IMG/VR virus record: IMGVR_UViG_3300024496_000011
Direction: 5' to 3' (one strand)
Length of the DNA stretch: 64,000 bases
Origin: a virus
Each line of letters opens with the position of its first letter. Position 1 is the stretch's first letter. Of this stretch, positions 31,325-61,904 are shown in pieces. Under the pieces are notes generated by a model that was not told where the DNA came from, ran no database searches, and worked only from the letters and a program-made list of their open reading frames with translations. Made by a program: the position numbers and the translations under genes.

Positions 31325-31443
31325 TGTTTTTAAAAGCTAAGTAGTCCATCAGGGAAATGGTGGAGATACTTATTTCCTAAACACCCTTAGTTTAGGATAT
31401 GAGAGACGATTTTATACTCCCTATAGGTCTCGGTTTGCGGAGA

Positions 31444-31524
31444 GTTTAACAATGTTGCAAAACATTAAAGATTCGTAACATTTGTTTACCTATTTATAAT
31501 ACACCCCTTTCAGAACTCTGTCAA
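31444..31524 (-). promoter_or_regulatory. psbA promoter region with HLR1-like repeats
   Basis: TTGACA-N17-TATTAT, overlapping TATAAATA, then GTAAACAA-AT-GTTACGAA. Confidence 0.55.
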
Positions 31525-54999: not shown

Positions 55000-55842
55000 T
55001 TAGTTTAGATTACCAAATTCATCAAATTGAAAAACATTATTGACACTTCCTCGATAAAGATTCATCCATAAACCACAATTGCCCGTATGATTGACGACAT
55101 ATGAACATTCAGAAACACACCTAAGTGCAGAATCAAACCACTGCATCCAATCCATAGTATCTTTCCCTTCGTTCTCCATTACAGTGTTCATTGCATCTGT
55201 ACCGTAAGTCGAAGGAGTTTCTTCAAAGTGAATAACCATATCTCCAAGTTCATTTTTAAAATAATCTATAACTTGTGTCTGATCACTTTGAACTAAAACT
55301 TTTTTAGCAGAAGTTGCTTGTAAAAGTTGCTTAACCGCTATCAAATAATTTGAAGGATGCGATAAACGAACTTCAGTCCACTTATCAGTTCCTCTATAAA
55401 GAACAGAAATTGTTTCTGTAGGATTAATATTATATTTTTGCATTAAAAAATTTTTTCTTTCCAAAATTAAATCACTTGGATTAAAAAACTTATTAATTAC
55501 TTGATTATAATATTCAAAATCATAAAGTCCAAATTGCTTTTTATTTTCGTCAGGCAAAGCAACTTTTTTAAACAACTTTACTTTTTTATTAAAATCAATT
55601 TTATAAAAATCTGGGAAAATATCACGATTCTCATCTTTTTTGAATCTCTTGAATCCCATTGAATAATTAATTACATCAGGTTCTATACCATGACTTAATA
55701 AGATTAAGAGAGAAAGAAATGCTTGTGTTTGATTAGAATAAAACCCACAGTTCCACATGCAATCCAGCTGATTCATTTCTGGATGATTAATCGAACTGCA
55801 CCCCCCAGTAGATGCAGTATATTTACAATGTCGTAACTTCAT
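55000..55842 (-). CDS. NodZ-like fucosyltransferase-fold protein
   Basis: SVLYRGTDK...VQSD motifs parallel to 46039..47586. Confidence 0.55.
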   Translation of the reverse strand: MKLRHCKYTASTGGCSSINHPEMNQLDCMWNCGFYSNQTQAFLSLLILLSHGIEPDVINYSMGFKRFKKDENRDIFPDFYKIDFNKKVKLFKKVALPDENKKQFGLYDFEYYNQVINKFFNPSDLILERKNFLMQKYNINPTETISVLYRGTDKWTEVRLSHPSNYLIAVKQLLQATSAKKVLVQSDQTQVIDYFKNELGDMVIHFEETPSTYGTDAMNTVMENEGKDTMDWMQWFDSALRCVSECSYVVNHTGNCGLWMNLYRGSVNNVFQFDEFGNLN

Positions 55843-56924
55843 TTTAATTCAATTTGAGTTTTAATCCAGTTATAAGTTTTACGAATACCCTCTTCAAGAG
55901 TTTGAGAGTAATCCCAACCTAGTTTTTCGCGAATAAGATCATTGTTAGAATTTCGACCACGAACACCTAGAGGACCATCAATATGATTTTTTTCTACAAC
56001 TTTACCTGCGACTTTAGCAGCAGTATCTACTAGTTGATTAATAGTAACCATTTCTTCAGAACCAATATTCACAGGTCCAATAAAATCACTATCCATCAAT
56101 CTGCGGGTTGCTTCGATACATTCATCAATATACAAGAAGGAACGAGTTTGTAACCCGTCTCCCCACACCTCGATAGTTCCACCTTCCTCTGAAAGGTAGG
56201 CAACTTTACGGCAAATTGCTGCAGGAGATTTTTCCCTTCCCCCTTCCCAGGTTCCTTCAGGTCCAAAGATATTATGATACCGAGCAACCCGAACAGGGAT
56301 CCCGTGATTACGAGAATAAGCGAAAAACAACCGCTCTGAGAAGAGTTTTTCCCAACCATATTCAGAATCTGGTGCTGCGGGATATGCTGATTCTTCACGG
56401 CAATCTGGATTATTGGGATCAAGTTGATTATGTTCTGGATACATGCAAGCAGAACTAGAATAAAAGATTTTAGTCTGATAGTCTAGAACAGGTCGAACAC
56501 ATTCAGTACCATTATCTACACCATTAAAAGTTTCATTAAACTGACGCTGTGCTTCAAGAACATTAAGATTAATGGTTGCAGAGTTATGCATGATGTCTGC
56601 ATCATTTTCGCCAGTGAAAACAAATCCAGCACCACCCATATCTGCAGCAAACTGATAAATCTCATGGAAAGGGCGAATGTAACGATAAGGGACTGAATTA
56701 TAAAAATTACCCTGTTCGCCTTTGAATTCAAGGGTACATCGAACAAAACCCATGTCCCTCAAGTCTCCCAAAACAAATTCATCTGCTTCGGAAATTGAAA
56801 ACTCGGGATACTTAATATCAACTCCACGGACCCAATATCCCTCAGACTTTAATCTCTTTACCATGTGACTTCCAATGAATCCACCAGCACCTAATACAAG
56901 TGCAGTTTTCTTATAATCACTCAT
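55839..56924 (-). CDS. GDP-mannose 3,5-epimerase-like NAD-dependent epimerase
   Basis: GAGGFIGSH, QFAADMGGAGF, YSSSACMYP, YGWEK, RYHNIFGP. Confidence 0.88.
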   Translation of the reverse strand: MSDYKKTALVLGAGGFIGSHMVKRLKSEGYWVRGVDIKYPEFSISEADEFVLGDLRDMGFVRCTLEFKGEQGNFYNSVPYRYIRPFHEIYQFAADMGGAGFVFTGENDADIMHNSATINLNVLEAQRQFNETFNGVDNGTECVRPVLDYQTKIFYSSSACMYPEHNQLDPNNPDCREESAYPAAPDSEYGWEKLFSERLFFAYSRNHGIPVRVARYHNIFGPEGTWEGGREKSPAAICRKVAYLSEEGGTIEVWGDGLQTRSFLYIDECIEATRRLMDSDFIGPVNIGSEEMVTINQLVDTAAKVAGKVVEKNHIDGPLGVRGRNSNNDLIREKLGWDYSQTLEEGIRKTYNWIKTQIELK

Positions 56925-56950
56925 AGATCAATAAATTTCTCTTAGTATAT

Positions 56951-56989
56951 ATTATACAAAAAAAGAGGGGTTATGTAAACCCCTCTTTT
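56951..56989 (-). terminator. terminator with embedded promoter
   Basis: AAGAGGGGTT/AACCCCTCTT stem with U7; TTTACA-N17-TATAAT. Confidence 0.8.
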
Positions 56990-56995
56990 GAAAAT

Positions 56996-57396
56996 TCAGG
57001 CTCGCCACCAATTCTTTGACTGGAAATTGGAAACCAGGCGGAGAAAGAATTCCCCATCCGCACCACTTGCTCTTGAGAGAAGCAAGAAACTCATAGGGGT
57101 CATTTGACTCCACCACTTAGTTTTGAGAAACTAAGAAAAGTTGGGTTAACTTTGATATCTCGGTAATACCAAAGAATGCACATAAGAATAATACATCCCA
57201 AAGTTTTAGTTTAATAGCAAAAGGTATTGTGAGTAGTCCCCCAATAACTTTTATCATTAAACCGTATTTAAATTCTCCCCACAACATAGTTTGATAACCA
57301 ATTATAAGGAGAATGTTTCCAATCCACCGAAGCAAATCAGATTTAGACATAAGGGGTTTTGCTCCCGACCAGTGCTGTTAAAGTCCATCCGTGACT
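56996..57396 (-). ncRNA. manA-like structured RNA split by an ORF
   Basis: 5' AGTCACGGATGGACT...CTGGTCGGGA; 3' CTTGCT/AGCAAG, GCGGA/TCCGC, CTGG/CCAG stems, CCAATT/AATTGG pseudoknot, GGCGAGCCTG; family identity is from recall. Confidence 0.6.
57117..57350 (-). CDS. 77-aa multi-pass membrane protein inside the manA-like RNA
   Basis: three hydrophobic segments. Confidence 0.65.
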   Translation of the reverse strand: MSKSDLLRWIGNILLIIGYQTMLWGEFKYGLMIKVIGGLLTIPFAIKLKLWDVLFLCAFFGITEISKLTQLFLVSQN

Positions 57397-57398
57397 AT

Positions 57399-57638
57399 TT
57401 ACTCATCATCATCTCTCACATAACAAGGAACACGATCTGGATCTAACCATTTCGCATATTCAATATCTTCCATTGCAGTAGAACATTGTAAAACATTATC
57501 AAAAAGATAAATGTCATTCCAGCGTTTGGTATACTCGTTTTGTTTTTGCATACGGTAATCAGGTTTACCGTTGATTTCAAGGATACCCGCCTCAATAAAG
57601 CGATATCCTTCTCGTTCAAGAAGAACTTTTGTCTTCAT
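57399..57638 (-). CDS. hypothetical protein
   Basis: NGKPDYRMQK...WLDPDRVPCY. Confidence 0.7.
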   Translation of the reverse strand: MKTKVLLEREGYRFIEAGILEINGKPDYRMQKQNEYTKRWNDIYLFDNVLQCSTAMEDIEYAKWLDPDRVPCYVRDDDE

Positions 57639-57850
57639 GCCACCTCTACAGATTCGAGATCAGCAAGAACATATTCCATAAGCATTTCATAGTCATCTAG
57701 AGGATCACCAGAGAATACTACACCTTCGTTCTCATAGTACCGACGAACCTTTTTGTAGAGTTTCGGATTCTTTACATCAAGGTAGAAGTCACCGTTTGCT
57801 GCTCCACGAAGAGTTTGGATGTCTTTCTTGAATTTTGCTGTGAGAGTCAT
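57635..57850 (-). CDS. hypothetical protein
   Basis: MTLTAKFKKD...KNPKLYKKVRRYYE; downstream of the promoter at 57873-57901. Confidence 0.7.
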   Translation of the reverse strand: MTLTAKFKKDIQTLRGAANGDFYLDVKNPKLYKKVRRYYENEGVVFSGDPLDDYEMLMEYVLADLESVEVA

Positions 57851-57872
57851 TGTTTTGAATGTTGACCTTAGT

Positions 57873-57901
57873 ATTATAAGGGGTTGACTTGAAGAAGTCA
57901 A
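57873..57901 (-). promoter_or_regulatory. sigma70 promoter with palindrome
   Basis: TTGACT-N17-TATAAT; TTGACTT-GAAG-AAGTCAA inverted repeat. Confidence 0.7.
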
Positions 57902-58479: not shown

Positions 58480-58551
58480 TGGGAATACTGGGAGTTGAAC
58501 CCAGACTAAGCCCTTATAAGGAGCCCGCTCTAACCATTAAGCTATACTCCC
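58480..58551 (-). tRNA. tRNA-Ile(UAU)
   Basis: GGGAGTA/TATTCCC acceptor, CTTATAA anticodon loop, TTCAACT. Confidence 0.88.
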
Positions 58552-58590
58552 CTGAATCCAGATCTATAATAGCGGATCTGGAACGCTTTG

Positions 58591-58821
58591 TCAAGAACCT
58601 TCTTCGTGGTCGGTGTGTATTCGTATCACATCGTCGTCCACATCAGATTCTACTGCAAACTTTATGGTTTCGTTGTATGGAACAATCACTGCGCTTCTTT
58701 CTCCATCAGTAATAATAAACGATTCACCATTTTCTACTCTTTGTATTAGATTGTCAAAATCTGCTTGAAACTCTTCAACCGTAAATTTTTGGAGATCTGA
58801 AAGTTCTGGATACATTTTCAT
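58591..58821 (-). CDS. Phd/YefM antitoxin-like protein
   Basis: FTVEEFQADFDNLIQRVENGESFIITDGERSAVIVPY. Confidence 0.6.
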   Translation of the reverse strand: MKMYPELSDLQKFTVEEFQADFDNLIQRVENGESFIITDGERSAVIVPYNETIKFAVESDVDDDVIRIHTDHEEGS

Positions 58822-58839
58822 AAAGTGAAGTTTTATGAG

Positions 58840-58913
58840 TCGGGGTGACAGGATTCGAACCTGCGACCCTCTGCTCCCAAAGCAGATGCGCTACCAAGCT
58901 GCGCTACACCCCG
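58840..58913 (-). tRNA. tRNA-Pro(UGG)
   Basis: CGGGGTG/CACCCCG acceptor, TTTGGGA loop. Confidence 0.95.
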
Positions 58914-59026
58914 TTACTTGTTTTTGTGTATGTACATAATACCAGCAAAAGGTACAACTGTCAATCCCATTCCACAAAGAAAAAGAAAGAAAGGACTTGC
59001 TGCTAGGGTTTCAACCAAGTGGAAAA

Positions 59027-59227
59027 TCATCTTCCTCTCCAGTTCTTGTATTCATAATACATGTATTGGTCAACTTCGTCAAGTCCTTGTAAAGGGGCGT
59101 TAACATTCCAAATAGACCATTCTTTGCAAAACTGTTTAATATCTATATTGTTTACAATATTGTGCCCATACATTCTCACAAAAGAAGACATTGCAAAATT
59201 GTATCTTTGTTTATTTGACATATGCAT
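59027..59227 (-). CDS. hypothetical protein
   Basis: 66-aa ORF. Confidence 0.6.
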   Translation of the reverse strand: MHMSNKQRYNFAMSSFVRMYGHNIVNNIDIKQFCKEWSIWNVNAPLQGLDEVDQYMYYEYKNWRGR

Positions 59228-59295
59228 AATTAAGTCCCCAATAAATCCACAAACTAATTGTAGAAAAATATATTAAGGATAATACAAAAAGTGTT

Positions 59296-59409
59296 TTAGT
59301 CATCTTCTTCGTCCTCGTAAGTTGATGGTTCTTCAAAGAGTTCATCCATTTTCTGTTGAAAAACTCTTTGGTATAGTTCTTGTAAGTCTTCTTCGGTGAA
59401 TCTTACCAT
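59296..59409 (-). CDS. 37-aa acidic peptide
   Basis: MVRFTEEDLQELYQRVFQQKMDELFEEPSTYEDEEDD; AGAGAGA RBS-like sequence. Confidence 0.45.
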   Translation of the reverse strand: MVRFTEEDLQELYQRVFQQKMDELFEEPSTYEDEEDD

Positions 59410-59414
59410 TCTCT

Positions 59415-59615
59415 CTATAAGGATATTTTTAACCAGGGTAATAGAGGAGGAATAACACCAACTAATCTTAAAAGTCCCTCAGCAAATAAAGCAAGAACCA
59501 CCCAACCGACGCACATACTAATGATAGAAGCATTACGGTTGTGTCTTCTGATAGCATCATCGATCATCTCCTGAACTTCAGAACGGGTAATAAACTCTTC
59601 TTGTTCGTGCATCAT
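59415..59615 (-). CDS. small membrane protein
   Basis: TRSEVQEMIDDAIRRHNRNASIISM followed by a TM segment. Confidence 0.7.
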   Translation of the reverse strand: MMHEQEEFITRSEVQEMIDDAIRRHNRNASIISMCVGWVVLALFAEGLLRLVGVIPPLLPWLKISL

Positions 59616-59761
59616 TTCTCGTCTCCAAGAAACTTTGCAAGAGGATCTTTGCGGGTTTTTAAAATCTCACATGCTCTATAATAAAACATATTATTGGTGT
59701 TACCAGAGGCTTCAAAAGTTGCCTTGATCTTCACCCAATTTTCATAGGTGTGTTGATCCAT
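59612..59761 (-). CDS. 49-aa hypothetical protein
   Basis: MDQHTYENWVKIKATFEASGNTNNMFYYRACEI; ATGA overlap. Confidence 0.55.
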   Translation of the reverse strand: MDQHTYENWVKIKATFEASGNTNNMFYYRACEILKTRKDPLAKFLGDEK

Positions 59762-59874
59762 AGGTTTGTCCCTGTGATACTATTATATACTAATCACAGA
59801 CACTTCAAAGTCAACTTTTTGTGTTCATATCGTAACACTGTTGAAGAAATTATTAAATTTGTAAGTTATCTTAA

Positions 59875-59957
59875 CGGAAAGAACAGGAATCGAACCTGCG
59901 AGGGCGTTAACCCCAGCCGCTTTCAAGGCGGTGTCCTCGACCAACCGGACTCTTTCC
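59875..59957 (-). tRNA. tRNA-Ser(UGA)
   Basis: GGAAAGA/TCTTTCC acceptor, CTTGAAA loop, long variable arm. Confidence 0.93.
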
Positions 59958-59967
59958 AGTAATAGGT

Positions 59968-60219
59968 TCAACGAACCTCAAAATCCAAACGCTTTACTTT
60001 GCGTTGGCGTCTTGCCTCTTGCCAGGCAATATCTTGTGAAGTCAGAACATTTGATTTTTGTTCTTTCTGAATAGAGTTTAGCATAACAATACGAGATAAG
60101 TCAACTGCTGAAACTTTATCTCCACGGATCGTTGCCATATTAGGACATCCACAAGTGACTGTTTTTGATGGGTGTCCTGTTAATTCTTTATTGCAATCTT
60201 TGCATCTTATTGAAATCAT
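59968..60219 (-). CDS. Cys-motif hypothetical protein
   Basis: CKDC...CGCPN. Confidence 0.7.
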   Translation of the reverse strand: MISIRCKDCNKELTGHPSKTVTCGCPNMATIRGDKVSAVDLSRIVMLNSIQKEQKSNVLTSQDIAWQEARRQRKVKRLDFEVR

Positions 60220-60234
60220 TATTCTTCATCCTAT

Positions 60235-60669
60235 TCATTGTAAGTGAGACCTTAACATCCAAATAAACTTACCGTGAGACTCCATCAAATCTTGAACTAG
60301 ATTAGCAGTTGCATATTGCTTTTGTGCTTCGGATTCCTCTGAAATCTCTTGCATCATTTCACAAAACTTTTCATTATTTTCAAGAAGTTCTTGAAGCATT
60401 TCTCTTGCTCCAGATGAACTTGCTGCTTCTTTGATTTGAGTTACCTCAAGCATTCTCGAAAGAGAACTGAGAGGTTTTACATTCAAATAACGCATATGTT
60501 CTGAGAGACGATCGATCTCTTCAAACATAGTCTCATACTGACCACCAAAAAGTTGATGGAGTTGAGTAAAGTCTTCACCTACAACATTCCAGTGAAATGC
60601 CCAAGTTTTATGGAATAAAACAAAAAGCGATGACTGTGCATCACTCAAGAGTTTATAAAGTTTTTCCAT
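60235..60669 (-). CDS. dps: Dps/ferritin-like protein
   Basis: HKTWAFHWNVVG.DF..LH.LF..QYE......D..SEH...H.K..WML. Confidence 0.92.
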   Translation of the reverse strand: MEKLYKLLSDAQSSLFVLFHKTWAFHWNVVGEDFTQLHQLFGGQYETMFEEIDRLSEHMRYLNVKPLSSLSRMLEVTQIKEAASSSGAREMLQELLENNEKFCEMMQEISEESEAQKQYATANLVQDLMESHGKFIWMLRSHLQ

Positions 60670-60699
60670 TATACTCTTTTTTTATTTTTATTTATCAAG

Positions 60700-60772
60700 T
60701 GGGAGCAGAGGGATTCGAACCCCCGACATTCTGCGTGTAAAGCAGACGCTGCTACCGCTGAGCTATGCTCCC
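60700..60772 (-). tRNA. tRNA-Val(UAC)
   Basis: GGGAGCA/TGCTCCC acceptor, TTTACAC loop. Confidence 0.93.
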
Positions 60773-61183
60773 GTATTTAGGATGCCCACCGTTTTTATAT
60801 CTTCCACCTCTACTCTTATTTGGAGGTTGAGTTTTAAGAGAGTGGCAATTTGGACAGAGAACCTGCAAATTGCTTGGCGAATGATTAAATGGGTCATCGT
60901 CAATATGGTCGATTTCTAATGGAACTTTACCAGTATGGATATTAGTTCCAGACCAACCACATTTAGAGCACTTGTGTAGTGCTTCCTCCAAAAGATAGTT
61001 TCTTACATATTGCGATAAATTGTAAGAAGAACCACCTGAAACTAAACCTTGTTTCCATTCAGTAATATACTGATTTCTTGTGTGTTCTTGTTGACATTTG
61101 TTGTTACAATACTTACCTCTTTTATGATAAGGATTGTAAGTAAATATCGTAGAACAATTTAAACAAGTAGCGGTTTGTTTCAT
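60752..61183 (-). mobile_element. HNH endonuclease
   Basis: CSKCGW...LEIDHIDDD..N...NLQVLCPNCHSLKT; last 7 codons overlap tRNA-Val. Confidence 0.88.
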
Positions 61184-61188
61184 CAGTT

Positions 61189-61225
61189 TAGTAGAACACT
61201 TTATTATTTATAAGGTATTCTACTA
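61189..61225 (-). promoter_or_regulatory. hairpin enclosing a late promoter upstream of the HNH gene
   Basis: TAGTAGAATAC/GTGTTCTACTA stem, TATAAATA in the loop. Confidence 0.7.
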
Positions 61226-61226
61226 A

Positions 61227-61298
61227 CTCCCCCGACAAGATTCGAACTTGTGACCTGGAAATTAACAGTTTCTCGCGCTACCGCTGCGCCACAGGGGA
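61227..61298 (-). tRNA. tRNA-Asn(GUU)
   Basis: TCCCCTG/CGGGGGA acceptor, CTGTTAA loop. Confidence 0.93.
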
Positions 61299-61353
61299 AT
61301 AAGTGTAGGTGAACCAACCTACAGTTTAGAGATTGCTCTCAAGGTCTTTTATG

Positions 61354-61428
61354 TGCCTCTGGCTGGGAATCGAACCCAGTATCCAACTCCTTTGTCAGGG
61401 TGTCCTTACCAATAGACTACGCAGAGGA
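61354..61428 (-). ncRNA. non-canonical tRNA-like element
   Basis: intact D arm and T arm (CTGGG-TTCGATT-CCCAG), bulged acceptor stem, no 5-bp anticodon stem. Confidence 0.65.
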
Positions 61429-61540
61429 AATGGGAAGTATTAGAGGACTTCCCAGCAAGGGTGATCAATCCCTTGACCTATGAGAGTCCCATAGGATTTA
61501 GTTGGCGTCTTTCTATGCTATCTGCATAACGACTACCAAG

Positions 61541-61612
61541 AGCGAAAGACGAGATTCGAACTCGCAACAACCTGCTTGGAAGGCAGGGACTCTACCGTTG
61601 AGTTACTTTCGC
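61541..61612 (-). tRNA. tRNA-Gly(UCC)
   Basis: GCGAAAG/CTTTCGC acceptor, CTTCCAA loop. Confidence 0.93.
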
Positions 61613-61621
61613 AATGAGACA

Positions 61622-61650
61622 ATCATAAACTATTTAAGTTAGATTGTCAA
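61622..61650 (-). promoter_or_regulatory. sigma70 promoter for the Gly-Asn tRNA block
   Basis: TTGACA-N17-TATGAT. Confidence 0.75.
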
Positions 61651-61651
61651 G

Positions 61652-61733
61652 TGTCGATGAAAGGACTTGAACCTTCATGGATTGCTCCACTGGAACCTAA
61701 ACCCAGCGCGTATACCAATTCCGCCACATCGAC
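61652..61733 (-). tRNA. tRNA-Leu(UAG)
   Basis: GTCGATG/CATCGAC acceptor, TTTAGGT loop, long variable arm. Confidence 0.93.
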
Positions 61734-61830
61734 TAGATGGAGTAAGCGTAATATACCTCAAGGATATAACAGAGGCTTACCCTCTATCTTGCTACGGCAT
61801 TCTGGTTTATCTTTCCAGCGCAAGTAGCAA

Positions 61831-61904
61831 CGACTCAGGAGGGACTTGAACCCCCGACCAACTGCTTAGAAGGCAGATGCTCTATCCAACTGAGCTACTG
61901 AGTC
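61831..61904 (-). tRNA. tRNA-Arg(UCU)
   Basis: GACTCAG/CTGAGTC acceptor, CTTCTAA loop. Confidence 0.95.

Follow-up and report, generated by a model that had tools for sequence, protein, structure and literature searches.

The window analyzed here is the whole 64,000-nucleotide stretch of the virus record IMGVR_UViG_3300024496_000011, and all features of the locus under study are read on its minus strand (Table 1). Along that strand, a promoter-like site and two conserved small genes are followed by a structured element that we call module A, a gene for a 77-aa membrane protein, a second structured element (module B), a wcaG RNA, a terminator with an embedded promoter-like site, and a gene for a wcaG-like epimerase. 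The first promoter-like site lies just upstream of an ATG at 57850, which is the likely real start of the first small gene. It is also overlapped by a 7-bp palindrome (TTGACTT-CTTC-AAGTCAA). Module A is followed, at a distance of 2 nt, by the start codon of the 77-aa open reading frame (ORF), whose last codons and stop are within the module B hairpin.

Table 1. Features of the locus, in minus-strand order, with the evidence for each; ranges are window positions.
Feature	Position	Strand	Evidence or remark
Sigma-70-like promoter of the small-gene operon (predicted), TTGACT-17-TATAAT	57873-57901	minus	consensus scan, 11/12 matches
Conserved small gene (phrog_552)	57635-57901	minus	T4-like gene cluster 249 in S-SM2
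Conserved 79-aa gene (phrog_481)	57399-57638	minus	T4-like gene cluster 250; comparison anchor
Module A	57353-57396	minus	covarying hairpin + CUGGU + G-rich/C-rich tail
Module A, hairpin AGUC-ACGGAUG-GACU	57396-57382	minus	followed by a linker
Module A, CUGGU	57372-57368	minus	
Module A, tail CGGGAGCAAAACCCC	57367-57353	minus	G-rich/C-rich
77-aa three-helix membrane protein gene (phrog_2318)	57117-57350	minus	dN/dS, family size, AlphaFold2
Module B	57096-57138	minus	covarying hairpin; overlaps 3' end of the 77-aa ORF
Module B, UUUC + hairpin CUUAGUU-UCUCAA-AACUAAG	57138-57116	minus	
Module B, UGGUG	57115-57111	minus	
Module B, tail GAGUCAAAUGACCCC	57110-57096	minus	
Canonical wcaG RNA (RF01761)	56994-57094	minus	98.3 bits, model 1-98 of 98
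wcaG RNA, P1	57086-57066	minus	covariation
wcaG RNA, first UGGYG (UGGUG)	57065-57061	minus	
wcaG RNA, P2	between UGGUG (57065-57061) and P3 (57030-57008)	minus	covariation
wcaG RNA, P3	57030-57008	minus	covariation
wcaG RNA, second UGGYG (UGGCG)	57007-57003	minus	
Composite intrinsic terminator + sigma-70-like promoter (predicted)	56951-56989	minus	sequence scan
Composite, terminator stem-loop	56989-56961	minus	12-bp stem, then T run
Composite, -35 TTTACA	56979-56974	minus	in terminator loop
Composite, -10 TATAAT	56956-56951	minus	17-nt spacer
NAD-dependent nucleotide-sugar epimerase/dehydratase, wcaG-like	55839-56924	minus	PF01370 1e-31, PF16363 2e-21

Rfam was searched in three ways: at the gathering threshold in the window, permissively (E <= 10) in 56850-57500, and across the whole 98.8-kb viral contig that holds the window. 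The gathering scores are 42 bits for wcaG (RF01761) and 55.2 bits for manA (RF01745). For comparison, we collected 10 cyanophage isolates and, with the upstream 79-aa gene as anchor, 80 IMG/VR loci; this gene has 448 related stretches in IMG/VR.

The 3' segment of the locus, which the original prediction had read as one half of an interrupted manA RNA, is a full-length wcaG RNA. It is the only one in the contig, where the Rfam search found zero manA, and the five complete phage genomes analyzed also have exactly one wcaG RNA each. In the alignment of relatives, 17 pairs of the P1, P2 and P3 stems show changes on both sides. The strings CCAATT (57030-57025) and AATTGG (57013-57008), earlier proposed to form a pseudoknot, are simply the two sides of P3. 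The real pseudoknot joins CUGG in J2/3 (57037-57034) to CCAG in the P3 loop (57023-57020); it is 97% paired in relatives, with covariation in three of its four pairs, and was annotated by the authors of the family as SS_cons_1 (Weinberg et al. 2010, PMC2864571). The UGGYG motif is described in Additional file 1 of the same paper, and the authors remarked that, being duplicated, it might be where a dimeric protein binds (PMC2864571).

A candidate second pseudoknot would pair GAG (57092-57090), located before UUU-P1, with CUC (57079-57077) at the start of the P1 loop. The two partners co-vary across relatives (GAG/CUC, AGG/CCU, UGG/CCA, CAG/CUG), a permutation test gave 3/2000, and this P1-loop pairing (57077-57092) was not found in the annotation of the wcaG authors. 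Other pairings were looked for. RNAalifold found no long-range pairing of the second tail (tail 2) with the wcaG RNA. A GGUGGAG/CUCCGCC pairing in the single-sequence minimum-energy fold was rejected, as it is what look-alike G/C hairpins are expected to give and covariation is absent. We tabulated the alignment by eye for variants of P2 linked to variants of the terminator stem, as would be a sign of an antiterminator, and saw no association. We also rejected a coding reading of the wcaG RNA, a 35-aa ORF at 56996-57103 with GGAG in front, as, judged by eye, the length of the P2 loop varies by non-multiples of three and S-SZBM1 has a stop in this frame.

Since 2010 the wcaG RNA has counted among the orphan riboswitch candidates, and cyanophage genome papers routinely label it as a regulator acting in cis on the sugar genes that follow. 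Our RNA has the classic context, as the epimerase gene is the first of a glycan island, and it shares with the described family (RF01761; PMC2864571) the P1/P2/P3 stems, the two UGGYG, the J2/3-P3-loop pseudoknot, the presence in a cyanophage and the position upstream of a wcaG-like epimerase. However, it is followed by a predicted terminator with an embedded promoter, which is hard to reconcile with simple regulation of the next gene from its 5'-UTR. This arrangement recurs: downstream of the wcaG RNAs, among 50 distinct contexts, a terminator is found in 46, a promoter-like site in 44, and both in 42. The terminator lies within 10-25 nt after the RNA. The spacer of the promoter-like site is 17 nt in 43 of 44 cases, the -10 box is TATAAT in 38, and the stems of the composite covary while the promoter boxes stay fixed. 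In S-IOM18, S-RSM4 and S-CAM1 the gene after the wcaG RNA is a tRNA. The presence of the composite implies that the RNA may form the 3' end of the upstream small-gene transcript no less than the leader of the epimerase gene. Since a terminator with a promoter nearly always comes after wcaG, the downstream genes need not depend on the wcaG RNA.

The composite at 56951-56989 matches, by its boxes and the overlapping stem-loop, the class of PeSL cassettes of T4-type phages (PMC2839356, PMC4122927), in which a sigma-70-like promoter is overlapped by a stem-loop terminator and small ORFs come and go. PeSLs differ from our locus in being dispersed repeats of coliphages and vibriophages, without a link to a structured RNA family, whereas the repeated elements that flank cargo in the window are RNA units specific to one locus. 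Composites of the same design, with a G/C stem-loop, a -35 box in or at the loop, a T run and TATAAT, are found at 56951-56989, ~44675 and ~24866, all on the minus strand. From their sequence, these three look like a recurrent PeSL-type terminator/promoter in this cyanophage.

The 77-aa ORF is a real, conserved gene of a small membrane protein. It has relatives in 204 cyanophage records (45-52% identity), its family comprises 445 protein clusters, all unnamed, and pairwise dN/dS values range from 0.10 to 0.24. AlphaFold2 models the protein as three long helices (pLDDT 85.5). Pfam gave no match to it, PHROG lists phrog_2318 as of unknown function, and a Foldseek search against the PDB returned nothing significant, with generic three-helix membrane subunits (MrpF, NuoK/NdhE; E >= 0.6) as its only matches. 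The ESM Atlas points to DUF6552, which is a lead only.

The surroundings of this gene are conserved to a large extent. We compared 47 distinct contexts in which the ORF occurs. A module A tail lies at most 40 nt from the start in 45 of them, a UGGUGGAG tail comes immediately behind the stop in 45, and the wcaG RNA adjoins directly in 35. The module A tail always ends 2-4 nt ahead of the AUG, and the last 5-9 codons of the ORF read into whichever hairpin comes next. ACG-2014f bears on whether the ORF could be an ordinary upstream gene lacking any 5' RNA, a possibility raised with the original prediction: its ORF directly follows the upstream gene, without module A. The 77-aa ORF can hence exist as an ordinary gene. 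In this phage (L002, 2181-2290), the ORF is followed by a single B-type hairpin and GUGGUGCG, which lead straight into a terminator, and the wcaG model scores 32.4 bits; this stretch resembles the array that we propose below, reduced to a minimum of one unit.

All strings quoted in the original prediction, as well as the ORF, are present on the minus strand. The 5' one, AGTCACGGATGGACT...CTGGTCGGGA, is at 57396-57363 and falls within module A. The hairpin of this module, with a 4-bp stem, a 7-nt loop and a linker of 9-12 nt, is 99.5% paired across 55 distinct copies, with 20 compensatory cells that include double changes from A-U to C-G and from U-A to A-U. The module also has a UGGYG-type motif, UGGUC, at 57371-57367. 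Its folding energy alone is no better than that of shuffled sequences (z = +0.89), so that its structural support comes from covariation and not from energy. No Rfam family covers it in the permissive scan of 56850-57500 or in the natural loci that lack the ORF. With a covariance model of module A, matches in its own contig and in five complete phage genomes are restricted to the neighborhood of wcaG RNAs; in these genomes, module A sits 35-290 nt upstream of the wcaG RNA and nowhere else. The proposal of a conserved RNA structure in the 5' segment hence holds, and when the ORF is absent this element abuts the rest of the array.

Module B consists of UUUC, a 7-bp hairpin, and then GUGGUGGAGUC...GACCCC. 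The hairpin is 96% paired in 43 copies, has 22 compensatory cells, and its G-U pairs are on the minus strand. In the permissive scan, the region gives a weak match to wcaG (57102-57180, 20.1 bits, E 0.24). The small hairpins in the tails of the two modules show zero compensatory changes in relatives.

The two modules have similar segments, and this similarity is at the origin of the idea that the ORF is an insertion. The 23-mers at 57370-57348 and 57114-57092 align with 20 matched bases and 3 gaps (score 13), a score reached by 0 of 2000 shuffles, and both are kept in more than 40 distinct relatives. That they both end in ATG is true in the window, but the second ATG is found in only 19 of 35 distinct relatives and is hence not conserved. 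The original prediction saw in them the trace of a single manA-like RNA that had been split by insertion of the ORF, with a hairpin duplicated at the site. This reading is favored by the conserved elements that flank the ORF on both sides and by the likeness of the 23-mers, and by nothing else. Against it, manA has no match at E <= 10 in 56850-57500 and none in the contig, in related loci or in natural loci lacking the ORF. The true manA RNA of RN05-S, set against the consensus, has zero elements in common with the two modules or with the wcaG RNA, and the 3' segment makes up a complete wcaG RNA by itself. Finally, both types of 23-mer occur in natural loci without the ORF (L006, L034, L068), so that they are neither an insertion scar nor a target-site duplication. 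The reading of a split manA RNA is thus refuted, and we give it practically no credit. What remains of the duplication idea is that the 23-mers would be paralogous copies of one RNA element: from the sequences, we infer that they are UGGYG plus small G/C hairpin segments of successive units.

The manA RNA (RF01745) occurs in the same group of phages, sometimes in the same genome region (RN05-S; S-CREM1, PMC9964418), and is also an orphan riboswitch candidate from the paper that described wcaG (PMC2864571). Unlike the elements described here, it is ~190 nt long, and is closed by the long-range pairing of its ends, for which the model uses a separate type of bracket.

What the elements around the ORF may be is suggested by genomes that lack it. 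In S-SZBM1 and RN05-S there is no 77-aa ORF, and module A, module B and the wcaG RNA are contiguous. When the contiguous A-B unit of S-SZBM1 was compared with 4227 Rfam families, the best was wcaG, with an end-to-end alignment, at 20.1 bits and E 0.041 in a search of 108 nt, which is below the 42-bit threshold. In this alignment, CUGGUCGGGA is placed on GUGGUGCGGA and UUUC-hairpin-GUGGUGGAG on UUUC-P3-GUGGCGAG, with P1 unpaired and P2 deleted. The raw alignment of the wcaG authors has rows where an A-type hairpin and CUGGUCGGGAUGGG...GACCCC are placed on P1/UGGYG/P2, and one row with a B-type tail in the P2 columns. The upstream unit further has UGGYG-type motifs after its hairpins, and its P3-like hairpin is framed by UUUC and GUGG. 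Its P2 stem could be formed only by short GGG...CCC or GUC...GAC pairings, without compensatory change. From their sequences, modules A and B resemble the halves of one degenerate unit upstream of the wcaG RNA; we call this unit wcaG-like and do not file it as a member of the family because its score is below 42 bits. The number of elements varies: L034, L068 and L071 have two A-type modules ahead of the wcaG RNA.

Our preferred reading, to which we assign a probability of about 0.6, is that the 77-aa ORF is nested in a degenerate unit of a tandem wcaG-type array that is followed by a terminator/promoter. The claim that an ORF lies inside a structured RNA would then stand in an amended form: the ORF is between P2-like and P3-like parts, and the RNA is a degenerate wcaG-like unit instead of manA. 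In sum, the original observation is confirmed and its interpretation is partly supported. We saw no pairing that would loop out the ORF on inspection. The canonical core of wcaG was already known, and the split upstream unit, together with the pattern of cassettes described below, seems to be new.

Some of the observations above fit this reading poorly. The upstream unit scores 20 bits where 42 are required, the shape of hairpin A differs from that of P1, the tail hairpins are without covariation, and ACG-2014f has the ORF without module A. One could therefore propose that each module is an independent accessory of the membrane-protein gene: module A would act as a structured leader for translation initiation, with GGGAG as the ribosome-binding site, and module B a protective 3' hairpin, whereas the ORF would be an ordinary upstream gene and the resemblance to wcaG superficial. 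The low score, the unlike hairpin and the case of ACG-2014f all agree with this view, as does the constant distance of 2-4 nt between the module A tail and the AUG. Yet both modules persist in loci that have no ORF (L006, L010, L034, L068), where module A, module B and the wcaG RNA adjoin one another. Complete genomes, some of them without the ORF, have module A solely next to the wcaG RNA, and the alignment made by the wcaG authors itself treats such elements as variants of wcaG. We thus regard accessory elements as a rather unlikely explanation.

The reading of a tandem array is further informed by what else is found between units. In related phages, different ORFs do occur at the unit junctions, as the survey proposed with the original prediction had envisaged. 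On other contigs, they lie between a B-type tail and P1 of the wcaG RNA. These cassettes include an ORF of 66-68 aa in four loci, a coiled-coil ORF (phrog_35121) in Bellamy, S-SM2 and L072, a 174-aa ORF between units, and a 187-aa ORF that replaces the end of the B-type tail (L082, IMGVR_UViG_3300045999_008996, 2014-2625). As a side observation, the N-terminus of the latter (..YYIGKGTGRR..) resembles by eye the motif of GIY-YIG nucleases; Pfam gave no support for this identity, and PHROG only a weak match to an endonuclease family. The presence or absence of the 77-aa ORF changes about six times on a tree of 450 nt of flanking genes, a tree of low resolution that recombination may affect, and at least two of the changes are forced by strongly supported branches.

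Homing-endonuclease ORFs sit in the loops of group I introns. Our locus is similar in that an ORF lies between conserved parts of an RNA and that there are natural variants with and without it. It differs in showing no evidence of catalytic RNA, splicing or mobility, and in that the host RNA unit is degenerate.

The exchange of cassettes raises another alternative, namely that the modules act mainly as patches of DNA homology, in the manner of PeSLs, for the exchange of cassettes in a hyperplastic region, their RNA structure being secondary. At least four different cargo ORFs at unit junctions and the patchy presence of the ORF on the tree are in line with it. So is the PeSL-type composite after the array, two more of which are in the window, and shuffling mediated by PeSLs is documented (PMC2839356, PMC4122927). 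But the fold of the RNA seems to be under selection, as the stems carry compensatory changes and have G-U pairs on the strand that is transcribed; the modules are found only at this locus, and are not dispersed in the genome like PeSLs; and an alignment of the tails has gaps and matches at only ~20 of 23 bases, little homology for recombination to act on. As the main role of the modules this is improbable, although it is compatible with a tandem array of RNA units and does not exclude it.

If these pieces are put together under the tandem-array reading, the locus could work as follows. An early-type operon on the minus strand would start at a promoter near 57901 and contain the phrog_552 gene, the phrog_481 gene, the 77-aa gene and the tandem RNA array. 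Each unit of the array would be made of a hairpin, a UGGYG-type pentamer and a small G-rich/C-rich hairpin, and the units would be homologous. The last two would form the canonical, complete wcaG RNA (56994-57094). The degenerate wcaG-like unit that precedes them would consist of a 5' part, module A, with a P1-like hairpin, CUGGU and a P2-like tail, and a 3' part, module B, with UUUC, a P3-like hairpin, UGGUG and a tail. In this phage and in most of its relatives, the 77-aa gene would fill the junction between A and B, where the J2/3 of the unit would be expected. The upstream transcripts would end just after the wcaG RNA, and the epimerase and glycan genes would use their own promoter.

As a working guess, the four UGGYG sites may be a multi-site platform for protein binding at the 3' end of an early transcript; a platform for ligand binding is a less likely alternative. 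Such a platform might tune termination, read-through or the stability of the transcript. The repeated units might also double as patches of homology for swapping small gene cassettes. One can generalize this to the whole family, in which wcaG would be the last two units of a tandem array, of variable length, of pseudoknotted UGGYG hairpin units, and would serve as a protein platform at the 3' end of early transcripts, with control of termination or of transcript fate, and as a scaffold for the capture and exchange of small gene cassettes such as that of the membrane protein, instead of being a stand-alone riboswitch in a 5'-UTR. This generalization is tentative, and we consider it more likely to be wrong than right.

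With regard to the current description of the family, the window adds an upstream A/B unit, not covered by the Rfam model and interrupted by a protein gene. Such extra units bring the number of UGGYG sites to four, not two, and in most relatives one of them embeds a conserved membrane-protein gene. The focus of study would hence shift toward protein binding and the fate of transcript 3' ends, beyond screens for ligands of the 98-nt core. The locus is also a clear natural example of the exchange of gene cassettes between RNA units.

These results have consequences for the annotation of deposited phage genomes, several of which lack the true 77-aa gene and have ORFs, probably spurious, annotated across the RNA. 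The true gene is unannotated in the records of S-SRM01 and ACG-2014f. Coding sequences of hypothetical proteins overlap the wcaG RNA in S-SRM01 (L001, 2255-2461), S-SM2 (L005, 2050-2244), S-RSM4 (L009, 2055-2168) and S-CAM7 (L003, 2290-2427), and they are probably spurious. The original prediction mentions another case of an ORF nested in a structured RNA, and either of two features elsewhere in the window may be the one meant. A PhotoRC-II RNA (RF01717, 78.4 bits) is found at 31362-31457 on the minus strand, and there are ten tRNA genes, mostly clustered at 58480-61904.
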